Positions 273 to 55,669 of a stretch of 64,000 nucleotides of DNA are shown in pieces. Origin of the DNA: an uncultured Thermoproteaceae archaeon. GTDB lineage: Archaea; Thermoproteota; Thermoprotei; Thermoproteales; Thermocladiaceae. The stretch is taken from NCBI GenBank assembly GCA_964575955.1, contig CAZNTG010000006.1:448001-512000 (forward strand), written 5' to 3'. Position 1 is the first letter of the stretch, and every line of letters begins with the position of its first letter. A model generated the notes under the pieces. That model was given only the letters and a program-made list of their open reading frames with translations, was not told the origin of the DNA and did no database searches. The translations under genes and the position numbers were made by a program.

Positions 273-301
273 ATATAGGTTATCGAGATATGATATGCAA
301 T

Positions 302-355
302 ATGATGAGTTCAGCGGAATATAGAACGATAGATGAGTGTAGGGTCAGTGGCTGA
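302..355 (+). ncRNA. C/D-box sRNA
   Basis: C box ATGATGA 302-308, D box CTGA 352-355, internal C'-like AGATGA, 54 nt. Confidence 0.7.
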
Positions 356-869
356 TCATATAGAGACATCTACCAGACTCATCACGCTTAATAATGACTT
401 TTCCACATGTCTCTAATATTCTTAAAGCTGTTGAAACTCTATCTGCTCTCTCACCTACAGAATCTGCAATAGTCTTCAAATTAGACTCTCTACCAATATC
501 TTTCAACTTCTTCTCAACAAGATCTACAAGATCTCTACTAACAACTCTGACAGTAGCTCTATCATTTAGAAGTCTAACAAGAATCATAGAATCACCTTCC
601 TGAATTACAAATCTCCTATCTTTAACACATATAACCTTTCTACATACTTGATCTACAACTTCAGGATCTATTTTAAACATACCATCTTCACACTCAACAA
701 CTATATTAAGCTTCTTCAAAATCCATATTAAAGTTCTTGAAAATCTACTACAAATACCGAGCTTTTCAGATAGTATTTTCCTATCAAACTTCTCAAATTT
801 TAAAATATAGATTACAGGCACTACCCATGGATATCTAGTAACTATGACTGATATCGGAATTCTAGACAT
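345..869 (-). CDS. Hypothetical protein with winged-helix-like segments
   Basis: 174 aa; C-terminal LKTIADSVGERADRVSTALRILE..GKV is HTH-like. Confidence 0.55.
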   Translation of the reverse strand: MSRIPISVIVTRYPWVVPVIYILKFEKFDRKILSEKLGICSRFSRTLIWILKKLNIVVECEDGMFKIDPEVVDQVCRKVICVKDRRFVIQEGDSMILVRLLNDRATVRVVSRDLVDLVEKKLKDIGRESNLKTIADSVGERADRVSTALRILETCGKVIIKRDESGRCLYMISH

Positions 870-8923: not shown

Positions 8924-9607
8924 ATGTTAATGTCTTCAGACTTCACTAAAGGTCAACAGTTGAGTAAGGAAAGTGTAGTTCATGAAGTTGCTGGTGTACC
9001 TATCATTGAGGAGTGTCCTAGAGATTTGAAGACTCTTGATGGTCAAGAAATTAAGCTATTCGGTAAGTGGAGCTATGAAGATGTTATTGTTAGAGATCCA
9101 GGACTTAGAAGATATATATGTCTAAAACCTGTACTACTACCACACACAGAGGGTAGATATCAGAAGAGGAGATTTGGAAAAGCTAAGATTCCAATAGTTG
9201 AGAGATTGATAAATCAGTTAATGCATCCTGGTAGAAATTCAGGTAAGAAACATAAAGCATACAACATAGTTAAGAGAGCATTTGACATAATATGGCTTAA
9301 GACAGGTAAGAATCCAATACAGGTACTTGTAGACGCAATAATAAATGCAGCACCTAGAGAAGAAATTACAAGAATAATATATGGAGGTATTGCATATCCA
9401 GTATCAGTAGATGTAGCACCACAGAGAAGAGTAGACCTCGCAATTAGATGGATAACTGAAGGTGCAAGATCATGCGCATACAATAATCCAAAACCAATAG
9501 AAGAATGTCTAGCAGATGAAATTATAGCAGCAGCAAATAACGATCCTAAAAGTTATGCTATAAGAAAGAAGGATGAAGTTGAGAGAATTGCAGCATCAGC
9601 AAGATAA
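8924..9607 (+). CDS. rps7: 30S ribosomal protein S7
   Basis: [31 protein letters not shown]. Confidence 0.97.
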
Positions 9608-11142: not shown

Positions 11143-11266
11143 TGGAGCCCCGGCCGGGATTTGAACCCGGGACCTGCCGCTATCGTGGACCCCGAGGGGC
11201 TCTTACCCACTGTACCCCTCGGGGCCTTACAAGGCGGCCGCTCTGACCGGGCTGAGCTACCGGGGC
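11143..11266 (-). tRNA. tRNA-Thr(UGU) with 46-nt intron at 37/38 (11182-11227), CCA encoded
   Basis: Cloverleaf GCCCCGG/CCGGGGC, anticodon arm GCCGC-CT-TGT-A^...^A-GCGGC, T arm CCGGG-TTCAAAT-CCCGG; BHB-like junction. Confidence 0.95.
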
Positions 11267-12734: not shown

Positions 12735-14201
12735 ATGAGTAATACAAATGATGTAGAATTTTCTCGTAGAGATTTTCTTAAGCTTGCCATTTCAACAGGC
12801 GCTGCAATTGGTATAGCTGTTACATGTTTTGGAGCTGGTATCGGTACAGGATATGCAATATCTCAAGCATTGTCTAAAGCTGTTAAAGTATCTCCAAAAG
12901 TTAAGACTGTAATAAAGTATCAAGTACCTAAGATTAGAGTAGGCTTCATATATATTGGACCTATAGGTGACTATGGTTGGACATTTGCACATGAGAGAGG
13001 TAGAGAGTACGTGTCTAGATATCTAGGACCAATATTGAAGGAGTGGAAAGGTAAGCCACAGCCAATATATATTGAGAAGGTATTTCCTGAATCTAGAGTT
13101 ATTGAAGCTATCAAAACACTTGTAGAAGAGGAAGGATGTAATCTCATATTTACAACAAGTTTTGGATATATGAGATATACTTGGGAGATGGCTAAAAAGT
13201 ATCCTGATGTACTTTTTGGACATTGTTCAGGATATTTAACACCAGAAACACCATTAAACGTTGTTGAATATTTCATAGATGAATATCCAGCATACTACCT
13301 ATGTGGTATTGTTGGTGGAGCAATGACTAAAACTAACAAGGTAGGTTATGTACCTGCATTCTTAACACCAGAAATTATTAGACATATAAATGCATTTACG
13401 ATAGGTGTTAAAGAAGGTGCAGCACTTGTAGGTAAAGATCCTGATAGTGTTGAAGTGATAGTAGCACCACCATTAGGAAGATGGTACTATCCTGAGAAGG
13501 CTAGAGAAGAAGCAGAAGCATTAATAGCAGAGGGATGTGACGTACTTGCATATACAGAAGATTCTCCAACAGTTCTAGAAGTTGCAGAAAGCTATCAGAA
13601 GAAGGGTATGAAGATTTGGAGCTTTAGTCATTATAGCGATATGCATGTATATGGTCCACATGCATGTCTAACAGGACAATTAGTAAATTGGGGACCAATG
13701 TATGAAGAACTTGTAATTAGAGCTTACATGGTATACCTAATGCATAAATATTGTGAAACACCACTTGAAGAAGCTTTAAAAATATGGACACAATGGCCAC
13801 CTGAAAGACCAAGAGATTACTGGTGGACAATGCATAGATCACACTATGTACCACTAACATTAAAAGATGCTTTCGTACCTGTTAAAGAAACTCCATATGG
13901 AACAATATATGAACCTATAAATGTTGTAGATATATGGTTAATAAATCCTGCAGTTCCTGAAAATGTGAAGAACTACGTTCTCTATAAGAGAAAGCTAATC
14001 ATGGAGAATATAGTAGACCCATTTGGACCACCAATATCAATAATTAAGAATGGAAAGATTGAGAAGATAGTTATGAAAGAGATTATAGATGTAGAAAGTA
14101 AGGTGAGGGTTGAACCTGGAATGAGGTTAAGTAAAGATGAGCTATATAGCATGAAGTGGTTTGTTAAAGGTGTTGTACTTCCAAAAGGTGTATCAGTTTA
14201 A
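12735..14201 (+). CDS. BMP-family ABC substrate-binding protein (nucleoside/purine type) with Tat signal
   Basis: SRRDFLK twin-arginine motif; VGFIYIGPIGDYGWTFAH, FTTSFGY, HINAF. Confidence 0.9.
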   Translation: MSNTNDVEFSRRDFLKLAISTGAAIGIAVTCFGAGIGTGYAISQALSKAVKVSPKVKTVIKYQVPKIRVGFIYIGPIGDYGWTFAHERGREYVSRYLGPILKEWKGKPQPIYIEKVFPESRVIEAIKTLVEEEGCNLIFTTSFGYMRYTWEMAKKYPDVLFGHCSGYLTPETPLNVVEYFIDEYPAYYLCGIVGGAMTKTNKVGYVPAFLTPEIIRHINAFTIGVKEGAALVGKDPDSVEVIVAPPLGRWYYPEKAREEAEALIAEGCDVLAYTEDSPTVLEVAESYQKKGMKIWSFSHYSDMHVYGPHACLTGQLVNWGPMYEELVIRAYMVYLMHKYCETPLEEALKIWTQWPPERPRDYWWTMHRSHYVPLTLKDAFVPVKETPYGTIYEPINVVDIWLINPAVPENVKNYVLYKRKLIMENIVDPFGPPISIIKNGKIEKIVMKEIIDVESKVRVEPGMRLSKDELYSMKWFVKGVVLPKGVSV

Positions 14202-14207
14202 GAAAAT

Positions 14208-15701
14208 ATGAAGAATGCATTAAAACTTGTAGGTATAGTAAAGAAATTTCCACACGTAACAGCACTAGATAATGTAGATTTTGAACTCAACTATGGAGAG
14301 ATTCATGCACTACTAGGTGAAAATGGTGCAGGAAAAACGACATTAGTAAACATAATATCTGGAGTATACATACCCGATGAAGGAGAGATATATCTAGAGG
14401 GTAGAAGAGTAATTATAAGATCTCCAAAAGATGCCCAAAAACTTGGAATTGTATCAGTATCACAACATCCAGTACTTATAGACTCATTAACAGTTTTAGA
14501 AAATATAGCATTAGCACTTGGTAAAAATCCTCATGATAAAAAGTTTCAAGAAAATATTAGGAGGGTAGTGAATGAGTTTAATATTAAGATTAATCTAGAT
14601 GCAAAGATATGGCAACTATCAGCTACTGAGAAAGCTAGAGTAGAGATAGTTAAGGCACTTATGAAAAATGGAAAAATATACATATTCGATGAACCGACAT
14701 CTCTAGTAGGATTGAAAGATAGAGACAACATCATGAATATAATGAAAAAATTGAGAGATGAAGGAAAGGCAGTACTATTCATAACACATAAAGTTGATGA
14801 AGTATTTGAAATAGCTGATAGAGTTACAGTACTTAGAAAAGGTAAGAAAGTATTAACTAAAGATGTCAAAGAAATTACTAAAGATGAATTGATAATTGCA
14901 ATGTTTGGAAGATATAGTGAAGATTTAGAATATTCAAAATGTAGAAGATATAGTAATGGACTTACACCAATATTAAAGGTAGATAATATCAAAGTTAAAG
15001 ATGATCTTGGAAAGATAGCTGTAGATGATGTAAGTCTAGAAGTTTATCAAGGAGAGATAGTAGGTATTGCAGGTCCTGTAGGTTCTGGACAGAGAGAACT
15101 TCTAGAAGCAATTGCAGGTATTAGAAAGGTAGTGTCAGGTAAAGTATACATGTTTAATATAGATGTCACAAATAGAGATTCAAAATTTATTAGAAAACTC
15201 GGAGTAGCATATATACCAGATGATAGACTTAGTATAGGTTCTGCATTATCACTCACAGTTCGTGATAATTTAATTATGAGAGATTTAGACATATATACAA
15301 ATAGAATTGGCATATATGTTAAGAGTAGGTTCAGAAATCTTGAACATATCTTAAGCAAGGTTGGACTAAGTAAAGAACTTCTTGAAGTACCTTGTGCAGA
15401 CTTGTCAGGTGGTATGATTCAGAGAGTTATACTCGCTAGAGAACTTCTAAATAGAGATATTAGACTTATAATAGCATCATACCCAACTAGCGGTCTTGAT
15501 CATGAAACTACAAAGCTTATTCATGACATGTTTATGAAGTTTAGAGATAGAGGATGTGGAGTAATTATCGCATCTGAAGATATTGAAGAACTATTGAGAT
15601 TATGTGATAGAATCTTAGTAATGATTAATGGTAAGATAGTTTATGAATCTAGAGTAGATAGTTTAGACATTGAAAAACTTAGAGAATTATTATCAACATA
15701 G
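14208..15701 (+). CDS. ABC transporter ATP-binding protein (CUT2 type, two ABC domains)
   Basis: GENGAGKT, DEPT, LSGG. Confidence 0.93.
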   Translation: MKNALKLVGIVKKFPHVTALDNVDFELNYGEIHALLGENGAGKTTLVNIISGVYIPDEGEIYLEGRRVIIRSPKDAQKLGIVSVSQHPVLIDSLTVLENIALALGKNPHDKKFQENIRRVVNEFNIKINLDAKIWQLSATEKARVEIVKALMKNGKIYIFDEPTSLVGLKDRDNIMNIMKKLRDEGKAVLFITHKVDEVFEIADRVTVLRKGKKVLTKDVKEITKDELIIAMFGRYSEDLEYSKCRRYSNGLTPILKVDNIKVKDDLGKIAVDDVSLEVYQGEIVGIAGPVGSGQRELLEAIAGIRKVVSGKVYMFNIDVTNRDSKFIRKLGVAYIPDDRLSIGSALSLTVRDNLIMRDLDIYTNRIGIYVKSRFRNLEHILSKVGLSKELLEVPCADLSGGMIQRVILARELLNRDIRLIIASYPTSGLDHETTKLIHDMFMKFRDRGCGVIIASEDIEELLRLCDRILVMINGKIVYESRVDSLDIEKLRELLST

Positions 15702-53531: not shown

Positions 53532-54221
53532 ATGGATGTTGAAGTTGTTATTGACAGTGAAGTACATAGTCTAGGAGTATATGTACTCTATTTCACAGCT
53601 AGAGATCTAGTGCAGAAGTATGATGAAGAACTTCTAAAATATATAGATGAATGTGTTAGATATGTTAAATCTAATTTAGATATAAACAAGTTGAAAGATA
53701 GTCCGTTCATAAGACCATTTAGAGATCTCTACTGGAAATTAGGTATTGATCCAACTAAAGTTAGACCAGCTCATGAAGCATTAATTAGGAGAATATTGAG
53801 AGGATCTGAATTACCTAAAATAAACCCTGTAGTAGATTTAGGAAATGCTGTAAGTATAAGATACATGTTGCCAATCGGAATATATGATCTAGACAGGTTA
53901 GGAAGTTCTAAACTTATCTTAAGAAAAGCTAGAGATGGAGAAGAAGTAAATCTTCTAGGTTCAGAAAAACCTGTAAAACTTGACAACAGGTACATAGTCT
54001 TAGCTACAGAGAGTGGAAAGATTGTACATGTATATCCTCACAGAGATTGTCAAGAAACCTCAGTAACTGAAAATACTAAAAACATACTATGTATTGTAGG
54101 ATCTGTAAAACCAATACAGGAAAAATATGTACATCAAGCAACTAGTGAACTTAGAGATAAGATAACTACATTCTTCAAACCTCAAAAAATATCTGATATA
54201 AACATAGCGAAAGGTATATAA
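53532..54221 (+). CDS. B3/4-domain (PheRS beta-like) protein
   Basis: LGIDPTKVRPAHEAL.RR, INPVVD.GN.VS, YPHRD. Confidence 0.88.
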   Translation: MDVEVVIDSEVHSLGVYVLYFTARDLVQKYDEELLKYIDECVRYVKSNLDINKLKDSPFIRPFRDLYWKLGIDPTKVRPAHEALIRRILRGSELPKINPVVDLGNAVSIRYMLPIGIYDLDRLGSSKLILRKARDGEEVNLLGSEKPVKLDNRYIVLATESGKIVHVYPHRDCQETSVTENTKNILCIVGSVKPIQEKYVHQATSELRDKITTFFKPQKISDINIAKGI

Positions 54222-54253
54222 ACACACCCAGAACAGATCTCTCTAGAAATAAA

Positions 54254-54311
54254 GCCGCGGACCGCCCGAAACAGACCCGCCGACCCCGGTTCGAATCCGG
54301 GCCCGGCTACC
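54254..54311 (+). tRNA. Isolated 3' half of tRNA-Gln with GC-rich leader (candidate split tRNA)
   Basis: A38-CCCGC-CGAC-CCCGG-TTCGAAT-CCGGG-CCCGGCT-A73-CC at 54275-54311; no 5' half adjacent; BRE/TATA CGAAAGGTATATAAAC at about 54208-54223. Confidence 0.75.
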
Positions 54312-54337: not shown

Positions 54338-55669
54338 CTATATCGAGACTAGTATTAGCAGTATCTTGTATATTGCATATATTATTGATATCAGTAGTGT
54401 TAATCCTAAGATTCTTATGAATAGTTTAGCTGTCTCTTTTGTAAATAGTGTTGTATATGTTAAACTTGTAATTGATATATTGTATATTGTTCTAGCATAG
54501 TTTAATGCTAAACTTCTAGGCACTATTGCAACTTCAGGTATTGCTATTAGTACTATAGATAGTGTTAATCCTCCAATTCCTGTAGCTATTAGAAATAGTA
54601 TGTAGTAATTTTTCAATAACATAGATATTATTGATGCAATTAGTGTTCCAACTTCATAACCAATTTGTGATAATGCTGAAACTCTCAATGTTCCAAGTTC
54701 TGTAACATATGTTGAGTATATTGCAGTTATCAGTATAAAACCACCCATTGTACAGGTTGAAAATATGAAGTATAGTAGTGGTTGAATATATACACTACTT
54801 ATCAATATTGGTAAGCATGTTGATAATACTAAAATTACTAGAGATATTCTACATAGATTATTACTTCTCCATACTAATGATCCTACTATAGTTCCTACAG
54901 ATCCTGATATTGCTATTATTGTTGCATATATTTGAGAAGCTTTTAATATAGATTTCATATATGGTATCCATATCATATATATCAAGTTTATACAAGAGCA
55001 GAATAGTATGTAGAACAGTAGAGATGTAACTTTACCAATCTCAACTTCAAACCTTACAGTAGATATTTGAACTGTTGATATTATAGGCTTAAATTCTGCT
55101 ATTAATAATACTGAGGTTCCAATAAGACCTACAAAACCTGAAAGTAGGTATAGGTATGTATATACTATAAGATTTCCATGAAATATCCATATTGTAATTA
55201 TTGATAGTAATATTCCAATTATAGATGTTGCAGATCCTATAGCAAATCTTTTAGATACAATATCTACAATATCTCTACCTGTAAATGATGAATATATTAA
55301 GTAGTTTAGAAATATACCTACAGGAGTTGTTATGAACATTGCAATACATGCAATGCAGATTTCAACAATTTTAAAATATATGAATAATGGTAATATCATC
55401 CAGAATATTCTCTCAAGACCATGACATACTATTGTCAATATTCTCAATATGTTATGTGAAAATGTTCCTCTCTTATAGATATATACTGCATATATTGTAG
55501 ATGCTATAGCTTGTATGAGAAATATTATTGATATTAATGTTAAATTATAACCTGCATAGCTTAACATTATTATGAAGAAACTTCTAGTAATAGCAACATA
55601 GAAACCTCCAGTACCTGCCTCAACTATTAAACTCAACTTTGGACCTATACTACGCATAGATATGAGCAC
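54338..55669 (-). CDS. MFS-like membrane transporter
   Basis: 12-13 hydrophobic segments. Confidence 0.7.
   Translation of the reverse strand: MLISMRSIGPKLSLIVEAGTGGFYVAITRSFFIIMLSYAGYNLTLISIIFLIQAIASTIYAVYIYKRGTFSHNILRILTIVCHGLERIFWMILPLFIYFKIVEICIACIAMFITTPVGIFLNYLIYSSFTGRDIVDIVSKRFAIGSATSIIGILLSIITIWIFHGNLIVYTYLYLLSGFVGLIGTSVLLIAEFKPIISTVQISTVRFEVEIGKVTSLLFYILFCSCINLIYMIWIPYMKSILKASQIYATIIAISGSVGTIVGSLVWRSNNLCRISLVILVLSTCLPILISSVYIQPLLYFIFSTCTMGGFILITAIYSTYVTELGTLRVSALSQIGYEVGTLIASIISMLLKNYYILFLIATGIGGLTLSIVLIAIPEVAIVPRSLALNYARTIYNISITSLTYTTLFTKETAKLFIRILGLTLLISIIYAIYKILLILVSI

Follow-up and report, generated by a model that had tools for sequence, protein, structure and literature searches.

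A candidate split tRNA-Gln with two 5' halves and one shared 3' half in an uncultured Thermoproteaceae archaeon

Introduction

Split transfer RNA (tRNA) genes are rare, and they are central to the debate on whether tRNA halves are ancient or derived. A review from 2014 counted 29 such genes with 12 anticodons in seven species (PMC4033280). In Nanoarchaeum equitans, the split tRNAs are initiator Met (iMet), His, Lys(CUU), Gln(UUG), which is joined between positions 32 and 33 (32/33), and Glu(CUC/UUC), whose two forms share one 3' half at 37/38 (PMC3218864, PMC4390854, PMC4033280). Those of Caldivirga maquilingensis are Gly, Glu and Ala, including tri-split forms (PMC4390854, PMC4033280), and tRNA-Asp(GUC) is split in Aeropyrum pernix as well as in Thermosphaera aggregans, as is tRNA-Lys(CUU) in Staphylothermus (PMC3218864). 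These descriptions and the comparisons made with them below refer to the parts of the cited papers that were drawn on. Here, we analysed a stretch of 64,000 nucleotides (nt) from an uncultured Thermoproteaceae archaeon (the window; G000:C6:448001-512000), whose genome, G000, has 1,521,267 bases in 15 contigs, is 94.7% complete and has a GC content of approximately 33%. The window carries a stand-alone 3' half of tRNA-Gln (54253-54311 on the forward strand of contig C6, leader included). Together with two 5' halves found elsewhere in G000, it appears to form a split, trans-spliced tRNA-Gln, a reading to which we assign a probability of approximately 0.8 based on the sequences.

The proposed arrangement resembles that of the N. 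equitans tRNA-Glu, in which two 5' halves with synonymous anticodons are joined at 37/38 to one 3' half with a 35-nt exon by means of a GC-rich complementary trailer and leader (PMC3218864, PMC4390854); its bulge-helix-bulge (BHB) is described as relaxed in PMC4033280. It differs in the isotype, which is Gln, in the genome, which at 1.5 Mb is of a free-living size and not that of a reduced symbiont, in the length of the 5' pre-half (71 nt versus the approximately 56 nt listed in PMC3218864) and in 18 extra bases, an intron-like bulge-hairpin-GGAG module that runs from G37 to the trailer. In the literature that was searched, the N. equitans tRNA-Gln(UUG) was the only other split tRNA-Gln found; it is joined at 32/33 instead of 37/38, has a single anticodon and shares no half (PMC3218864). 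As in Caldivirga, the host is a crenarchaeon placed under Thermoproteales, synonymous isoacceptors draw on common constitutive halves and the leader sequences resemble the introns that related species have at the same positions, although the Caldivirga isotypes, which we compared through reviews, are Gly, Glu and Ala (PMC4390854, PMC4033280). The likeness to the tRNA-Asp(GUC) of A. pernix and T. aggregans, which is also joined at 37/38, and to the tRNA-Lys(CUU) of Staphylothermus lies in a separate B recognition element (BRE)/TATA box for each 3' half and in a 13-14-bp GC-rich helix (PMC3218864). In these cases, sister species differ by a compensatory change that supports the helix, and the splits are read as derived, as they are here (PMC3218864). 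However, a canonical BHB with its flanking helices (hBHBh') directly precedes the helix in A. pernix, T. aggregans and Staphylothermus, and the halves are adjacent or 5 kb apart, whereas the 3' splice site proposed here is non-canonical, the halves lie on different contigs and one 3' half serves two 5' halves.

Searches of the full-text literature yielded no report of a split tRNA-Gln apart from the one in N. equitans and no such report for this lineage; PMC7080975 concerns other species. Within that literature, the sequences represent a new combination of isotype and position, i.e., Gln at 37/38 with both isoacceptors using one 3' half. The six species-level genomes in which it occurs make an unusually rich comparative record for a split tRNA.

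The three half genes

A first-pass annotation of the window had described a T arm, a variable loop, the anticodon-stem strand CCCGC and an acceptor strand at this site, and all of them were present base for base (Table 1). No D arm occurred upstream of the 3' half, and downstream of 54311 there was neither a 5' half nor anything else tRNA-like, the sequence being AT-rich up to a convergent open reading frame (ORF) that ends at 54338. A circularly permuted tRNA gene, which the annotation had also discounted, can be ruled out because no 5' part lies downstream of the 3' part. The default ARAGORN run reported 0 genes over the window, and Rfam gave no tRNA match at the site, either at the gathering score or at E <= 10.

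The reverse complement of the 14-nt leader core (hereafter, the 14-mer) was searched for in G000 with up to 2 mismatches. It had three exact matches in the 1,521,267 bases, which were the 3'-half site itself and two 5' halves of tRNA-Gln, one with the anticodon CUG and one with UUG; a reversed control pattern had 0 matches, and besides the exact ones there was a single 2-mismatch match in an unrelated GC-rich stretch. The match of the leader is therefore beyond chance, as its complement is confined to the site and the 5' halves and the control found nothing. Both 5' halves cover positions 1-37, with the start AGCCGGG, a D arm, the anticodon-stem strand GCGGG and the loop C-U-N-U-G-G; in each, G37 is followed by 18 extra bases and then by the exact complement of the 14-mer. 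Their exons differ at nt 34 alone, and approximately 25 nt of the downstream flank are common to both. Between the 5' halves and the 3' half, 7/7 pairs of the acceptor stem (with AGCCGGG) and 5/5 of the anticodon stem (with GCGGG) can form, and the pieces, of which the 5' half supplies the D arm and the 3' half the T arm, add up to one complete cloverleaf. RNAcofold predicted an intermolecular helix of 17 bp and complex energies of -92.0 and -88.3 kcal/mol for the two pairs. Thus, the search for an AGCCGGG-type 5' half with a complementary trailer, which the first-pass annotation had suggested as a check on its promoter-driven 3' half, was positive at two loci. The annotation had implied a single 5' partner; a partner does exist, but two 5' halves draw on the one 3' half.

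Table 1. Coordinates of the 3' half in the window and of the two 5' halves in G000.
Feature	Location	Strand	Remarks
TATA-like box TATATAAA	54215-54222	+	Overlaps the B3/4-domain ORF upstream (53532-54221) at its stop codon
Leader strand of the intermolecular helix	54253-54269	+	14-nt core with A54253 and G54268-A54269, extra bases that pair in G000
14-nt GC-rich leader core GCCGCGGACCGCCC	54254-54267	+	
7-nt linker GAAACAG from helix to exon	54268-54274	+	Proposed 3' splice site after G54274
3' exon of tRNA-Gln, positions 38-73	54275-54309	+	Begins with A38 (54275)
3' strand of the anticodon stem, CCCGC	54276-54280	+	
4-nt variable loop, CGAC	54281-54284	+	
Perfect T arm	54285-54301	+	
3' strand of the acceptor stem, CCCGGCT	54302-54308	+	
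Discriminator A73	54309	+	
CC, partly encoded CCA end	54310-54311	+	Next base is T
5' half, anticodon CUG	G000:C2:14922-14992	+	14-mer complement in the trailer at 14978-14991
5' half, anticodon UUG	G000:C13:13368-13298	-	14-mer complement in the trailer at 13299-13312

From this layout we infer transcription, annealing, the cut sites and ligation as follows. The three short genes would be transcribed separately from their own promoters, and either 5' transcript would anneal to the 3' transcript through the GC-rich trailer-leader helix of 14-17 bp, which would allow a 7-bp acceptor stem and a 5-bp anticodon stem to form between the molecules. The splicing endonuclease would then cut after G37 and before A38 and RtcB would join the exons, the product being tRNA-Gln(CUG) or tRNA-Gln(UUG); trimming by RNase P and completion of the CCA end are assumed, as for any tRNA. 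The encoded CC after A73 is missing in one relative, G004, and the CCA is therefore presumably added after transcription. The A1-U72 pair, which the first-pass annotation had called typical of archaeal tRNA-Gln, occurs in all of the relatives' tRNA-Gln genes that were compared. This pair has a role in the recognition of tRNA-Gln by the amidotransferase.

A duplex as stable as the one predicted (-88 to -92 kcal/mol for the whole complex) would also suit a non-covalent two-piece tRNA, or separate small RNAs, that are never ligated. We consider this highly improbable: the 18 extra bases and a helix of 14-17 bp would sit within the anticodon loop, the 5' halves conserve a module that resembles a splice site, and genes for the splicing endonuclease and RtcB are present. 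Moreover, all of the split tRNAs that have been studied are ligated, according to the parts of PMC3218864 and PMC4390854 that were drawn on.

Absence of a contiguous tRNA-Gln gene

The Rfam tRNA model found 43 genes in G000 and ARAGORN, run with introns allowed, found 46, with all 43 coinciding with ARAGORN calls. No tRNA-Gln was among the 43 Rfam matches, which were cross-read with the 46 ARAGORN calls; the one 'Gln' of ARAGORN, with an 'intron' of 2,389 nt, was rejected as AT-rich sequence that is not a tRNA. Acceptor-end motifs of tRNA-Gln were confined to the three half-gene loci. An intact tRNA-Gln with the same 3' sequence elsewhere, which the first-pass annotation had named as the finding that would speak against a split gene, was not found in G000. 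The oddly parsed tRNA genes could be read as intron-bearing His(GUG), Val(CAC) and Arg(GCG), and the other expected isoacceptor families have genes, except for Ala(CGC), which was not seen. By these gene calls, Gln is the sole amino acid without a contiguous tRNA gene in G000. No contiguous tRNA-Gln was found in the assemblies G001-G004 and G006 of the same genus either (69-95% complete). Since the standard tRNA finders miss all three loci, annotations of genomes from this group will show no tRNA-Gln.

Conservation and covariation across the genus

A search of 40 related genomes with the 3' half included the six other members of the genus, G001-G006. The 3' half and its leader were matched over the full query at 94-97% identity in five of these six (G001-G004 and G006), and the same five have the three-locus layout and the identical 14-mer, whereas in genomes of other genera the match to the query starts only at A38. 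Each of the five carries 2-3 5' halves with the same trailer, in total 11 complete copies and one fragment at a contig end; with G000, 13 complete 5' halves were available. In the six split-bearing genomes, the 14-mer occurs in 3-4 copies each, all of them at tRNA-Gln half loci; it was not found in G005 or in G008, which belongs to a sister genus. All six genomes have the same 3' exon and the same leader core, while the 5' exon is identical in 13/13 copies except for nt 34 and the trailer core in 12/13. Consequently, 14/14 pairs form in 12 of the 13 cognate pairs and 13/14 in the remaining one. This invariance of exons and 14-mer stands against neighbouring proteins that are merely 39-69% identical between the genomes.

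Other parts of the half genes vary. The linker has 7 nt in 6/6 genomes, with the sequences GAAACAG, GCAACAG, GCGACAG, AAACCAC (twice) and AAACCAA, so that its only invariant bases are the C and the A of positions 5 and 6. The hairpin loops of the 5' halves also differ between genomes. At the outer end of the helix, five genomes have an A:U pair and G006 has G:C; at the inner end, G000 has U:A, G003 and G006 have G:C, and the helix of G001, G002 and G004 lacks this extension. Within each genome, the 5' copies all carry the change at the helix end that fits the single 3' half. In this comparison the helix ends covary, which, because the genomes are kin, amounts to approximately two independent events and is not a statistical test.

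An exact scan of species-representative genomes for the leader-linker-exon pattern yielded 25 stretches. Five were in archaeal metagenome-assembled genome (MAG) records that are labelled as Thermoproteota, Thermoproteales or Thermoproteaceae archaeon; the other 20, in GC-rich bacterial genomes, were taken as chance matches. A scan of 41 genomes for where the 14-mer could have come from, for example a mobile element or a different intron, found no source. Outside the Gln halves of these genomes, 1-mismatch matches occurred at about the frequency of the reversed control, and there was one exact match, in a GC-rich genome of another family.

These data bear on two further explanations. The halves could be dead remnants, i.e., attachment-site (att) scars or decayed duplicates, with the working tRNA-Gln genes in the unassembled approximately 5% of the genome. 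G000 is indeed 94.7% complete and in 15 contigs, and a decayed 3' fragment of tRNA-Gln exists in a related genus (G014). Nevertheless, this is very unlikely: six assemblies of the genus are without a contiguous tRNA-Gln, and six genomes keep invariant exons, the 14-mer, covarying ends, promoter-like boxes and loci despite deep protein divergence. An att scar would also leave the leader-complementary trailers of the 5' halves unexplained, and there is no integrase or transposase domain within approximately 1.5 kb of the three loci. The fragment in G014 (L111, G014:C10:12540-12720) retains an anticodon arm and a T arm, has a damaged acceptor strand and no 5' part, and is likely a scar or a pseudogene, an example of how a dead fragment appears in this family. 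The least credible explanation is an artefact of assembly or binning that created apparent half genes. Several of the related loci do lie on short contigs or at contig ends, but the 3' half of G000 is inside a 621-kb contig with ordinary genes on both sides, the 5' halves are flanked on both sides inside contigs of 61 kb and 43 kb, and identical junctions are seen again in six assemblies and two DNA data sets from two studies, one of these data sets possibly being the source of this DNA.

Splice junction

The junction was placed at 37/38 because the similarity to tRNA ends there, intact orthologues read YUGGACCC across it and the cis introns of relatives are located at 37/38. The intact, intronless tRNA-Gln(CUG) of the sister genus (G008) is 98% identical to the 5' part and 100% to the 3' part, and positions 30-67 of the 3'-half query are 100% identical to the 3' part of the tRNA-Gln genes of this sister genus, one of which is the intact one. 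Directly after G37, the 13 complete 5' halves all continue in one order: N, CC(C), a loop of 3-5 nt that varies, GG(G), GGAG, A, N, 0-2 bases and the trailer. A 4-bp cis helix between nt 32-35 and GGAG, a 3-nt bulge and a hairpin can be drawn in 13/13.

We therefore consider a bulge-helix-loop junction in which nt 32-35 pair in cis with the GGAG of the 5' half, and give it about an even chance. G36-G37-N would be a canonical 3-nt bulge beside a hairpin of 2-3 bp, which would present the 5' splice site; the 3' site, A-N|A38, would lie in the junction loop, and the intermolecular helix would be an arm inserted where the second bulge is expected. There is an invariant A two bases before the 3' cut, as in the cis intron. 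As modelled in isolation, the cis form is optimal or within approximately 2 kcal/mol for most of the CUG modules. Such a three-way substrate geometry was not found described for any split tRNA in the searched literature, in which Caldivirga was covered through reviews.

The first-pass annotation had proposed a relaxed BHB in which AAAC of the leader pairs with U33-U35, and this did not hold up, as the pairing is not conserved in the linkers of the five related genomes. As a conserved feature, this helix was rejected: it has 3 pairs for the UUG half of G000 only and 1-2 elsewhere, and the invariant linker C always faces C32. No consistent partner for linker bases 2-5 was found by eye in the anticodon loop or in the hairpin loops of the 5' module across the six genomes. 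The conserved GGAG within the 5' half is the more likely helix partner of nt 32-35.

The pairing of the linker returns in an alternative that concerns the same split tRNA and assumes two nested steps. The module would be cut out of the 5' transcript, after G37 and two bases after GGAG, and the ends re-ligated, which would move the trailer next to G37; linker bases 2-5 would then pair with nt 32-35, as had been proposed, in a canonically sized BHB flanked by the trailer-leader helix. The spacing offers some encouragement. Exactly 3 unpaired bases (AAC or AGC) separate GGAG from the helix in G001, G002 and G004, and 2-3 elsewhere, and with the G36-G37-N bulge these bases make a bulge-helix-bulge; G000, G003 and G006 would then have exactly 4+2 linker bases between helix and A38, and the linker length is invariant at 7 nt in 6/6 genomes. 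However, the trans helix would be poor and not conserved, with C32 always facing the invariant linker C5 and only 1-3 of 4 pairs forming, according to the genome and the anticodon, the spacing is off by one base in G001, G002 and G004, and nothing points to a re-ligated intermediate. Overall, we regard the two-step path as fairly unlikely.

Returning to the one-step splicing of a split tRNA-Gln, a number of observations weigh against it or against the cis junction. The sequencing runs that contain the stretch comprised two DNA data sets and no RNA run. All of the genomes are MAG-like assemblies, 69-95% complete, in which a contiguous gene may be missed in a single one. An additional CUG copy of the 5' half in G006 carries a C.A mismatch in its helix. 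Instead of a canonical 3-nt bulge, a single-stranded connector of 6-8 nt holds the 3' site, and since GGAG and nt 32-35 never vary, the cis helix is supported by conservation and not by covariation. When the cloverleaf and the intermolecular helix were imposed, the cis BHB-like form was optimal in 3/13 pairs; 8/13 preferred to pair U33-G36 with the last three linker bases and A38, burying the 3' site, and the remaining 2/13 folded differently. Without constraints, the intermolecular helix formed in 13/13 pairs and the anticodon stem in 7/13. In the isolated UUG modules, the cis helix was weak (approximately 0 kcal/mol). Finally, G005, from the same genus, has no halves and instead has a contiguous tRNA-Gln(CUG) at 299-393 (-) of L012/L065 (G005:C121) with a 19-nt intron at 37/38. 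In a tree of concatenated SRP54, Rad50 and histidyl-tRNA synthetase (HisRS) sequences (1,737 columns; HisRS rows missing for G003 and G004), G005 was sister to G003 and G006 with an approximate likelihood-ratio support (SH-aLRT) of 98.4 and an ultrafast bootstrap (UFBoot) of 97, and the single-gene trees agreed or were unresolved. The contiguous gene of G005 is therefore nested in the split-bearing clade and not basal to it.

Splicing enzymes

Two EndA ORFs were found in G000, around positions 45073-45306 of C9 and 175188-175445 of C6. One, of 186 amino acids (aa), matched TIGR00324 (the endA equivalog) with 117.7 bits against a cut-off of 59.6, and in two-repeat enzymes it corresponds by alignment to the catalytic repeat; the other, of 174 aa, matched PF01974 with 41 bits and aligns with the first, structural repeat of these enzymes. 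The two paralogues probably form an alpha-beta heterotetramer of the crenarchaeal type. RtcB is present as well (G000:C3:47996-49309; 592 bits, 485 aa). Splicing endonucleases of the heterotetramer type cleave relaxed motifs, as stated in the parts of PMC4033280 and PMC5829648 that were drawn on, and the split tRNA-Gln could serve as a natural test substrate for the relaxed specificity of the crenarchaeal enzymes. The RtcB matches in G004:C43 and G008:C6 are interrupted, with open frames of 789 and 973 aa versus 485 in G000, possibly by inteins.

Promoters and gene neighbourhoods

The last base of the TATA-like word TATATAAA is 31 nt upstream of A54253. The initial list of words gave a TATA-like word ending 25-35 nt upstream for 17 of the 19 half-genes of the six genomes; for the other two, ATATAAA and TATTTAA were recognised by eye, which makes 19/19 after both words were added post hoc. 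With the list thus widened, 901 of 20,000 random genome positions (4.5%) and 28 of 43 ordinary tRNA genes also had such a word. At the level of motifs, each half would therefore seem to have its own promoter.

The 3' half is flanked by the B3/4-domain ORF and by a convergent ORF of 443 aa that has no Pfam match, with HisRS, an A24 peptidase, L10e and DUF2192 nearby; it also adjoins HisRS and the A24 peptidase in G001, G002, G003 and G006, at 0.9-1.6 kb from HisRS. The two 5'-half loci are conserved, locus I as L37ae, a 223-aa ORF, the half and a glycosyltransferase and locus II as an M28 peptidase, a 126-aa ORF, the half and CitG. Neither integrase nor transposase domains were detected in the ORFs within approximately 1.5 kb of any of the three loci, in line with the first-pass annotation, which had seen no integrase near the 3' half. 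Locus I holds UUG in G000 and CUG in G001-G004 and G006; conversely, locus II holds CUG in G000 and UUG in G001, G002 and G004. This swap of anticodons between the loci indicates that the cassettes were exchanged or converted. Among the contigs of G003 and G006 that share a flank, some have a CUG 5' half and others a UUG 5' half. The alternation of CUG and UUG at the 5'-half loci suggests gene conversion or heterogeneity of the populations.

Evolutionary origin

The cis introns of the relatives have the same plan as the module of the 5' halves. As we read it, the G005 intron forms a canonical hBHBh' in which nt 32-35 pair with GGAG, with the bulges G36-G37|A and A-G|A38 and a 4-bp outer hairpin. 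In G010 and G013, which belong to another genus and carry UUG, 17-nt introns at 37/38 have the layout N-CC(C)-loop-GG(G)-GUAG-AA|A. Because the module matches these introns, the 5' half can be understood as exon 1, the whole ancestral intron and a new trailer, and the break in the gene probably fell at the 3' splice site of an ancestral 37/38 intron. Both intronless and 37/38-intron tRNA-Gln genes occur in other genera, and this favours an order in which the intron came first and the split later. Apart from a UUG split in G008, the tRNA-Gln genes in the other genera of the family that were searched are contiguous.

The tree splits the genus into (G000,(G004,(G001,G002))) and (G005,(G003,G006)). 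As both clades hold halves, the split predates the crown of the genus. The contig with the tRNA-Gln gene of G005 is 1.9 kb long, shows no synteny with the half loci and also carries a pair of ORFs that, by their translations, are HEPN-like and nucleotidyltransferase-like; the gene may be a retained second form (ancestral coexistence) or a re-fusion, or the contig may be mis-binned. The invariant helix with covarying ends, the conserved loci, the exchange of cassettes, the cis-intron relatives and the second split in G008 together favour a derived origin of the halves. A fuller scenario, with a three-way-junction precursor, retention of the whole ancestral intron, a cassette swap and splitting that is reversible or both forms long coexisting, is a tentative possibility that we consider doubtful as a whole.

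The second, different split of tRNA-Gln in G008 concerns the UUG gene on L067 (G008:C3), with pieces at 1505-1545 and 2770-2841. This gene is broken upstream of or within the 5' strand of the anticodon stem (between 25/26 and 31/32 by sequence). The pieces are 1.27 kb apart on one strand, their trailer and leader are complementary over 13 bp, a TATA-like box precedes the 3' piece, and the spacer holds a 317-aa ORF without a Pfam match on the opposite strand. The tRNA-Gln(CUG) of the same genome, on L066 (G008:C1) at 1501-1577, is an intact gene without an intron, at a distance of 3.9 kb from HisRS. In L022 (G021:C26), a tRNA-Gln(CUG) at approximately 9442-9562 has a 46-nt intron at 37/38 that holds pieces of tRNA-Gln resembling a D loop and a UUG anticodon arm, as if two genes had recombined.

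Other tRNA genes

Rfam's sole tRNA in the window is a tRNA-Thr(UGU) at 11146-11266 (-) with a 46-nt intron (55.4 bits), which ARAGORN saw only with the intron search on. The tRNA-His(GUG) of G000 at G000:C9:106366-106469 (+) has an apparent non-canonical intron inside the anticodon, after nt 35, and was mis-called as Leu(AAG) by ARAGORN. Additionally, the tRNA-Lys(UUU) at G000:C6:596543-596638 (+) has an intron, CC-GUGU-GGGGGAGGAG-A, that resembles the module in the Gln 5' halves, and the two may belong to one shared family of introns.

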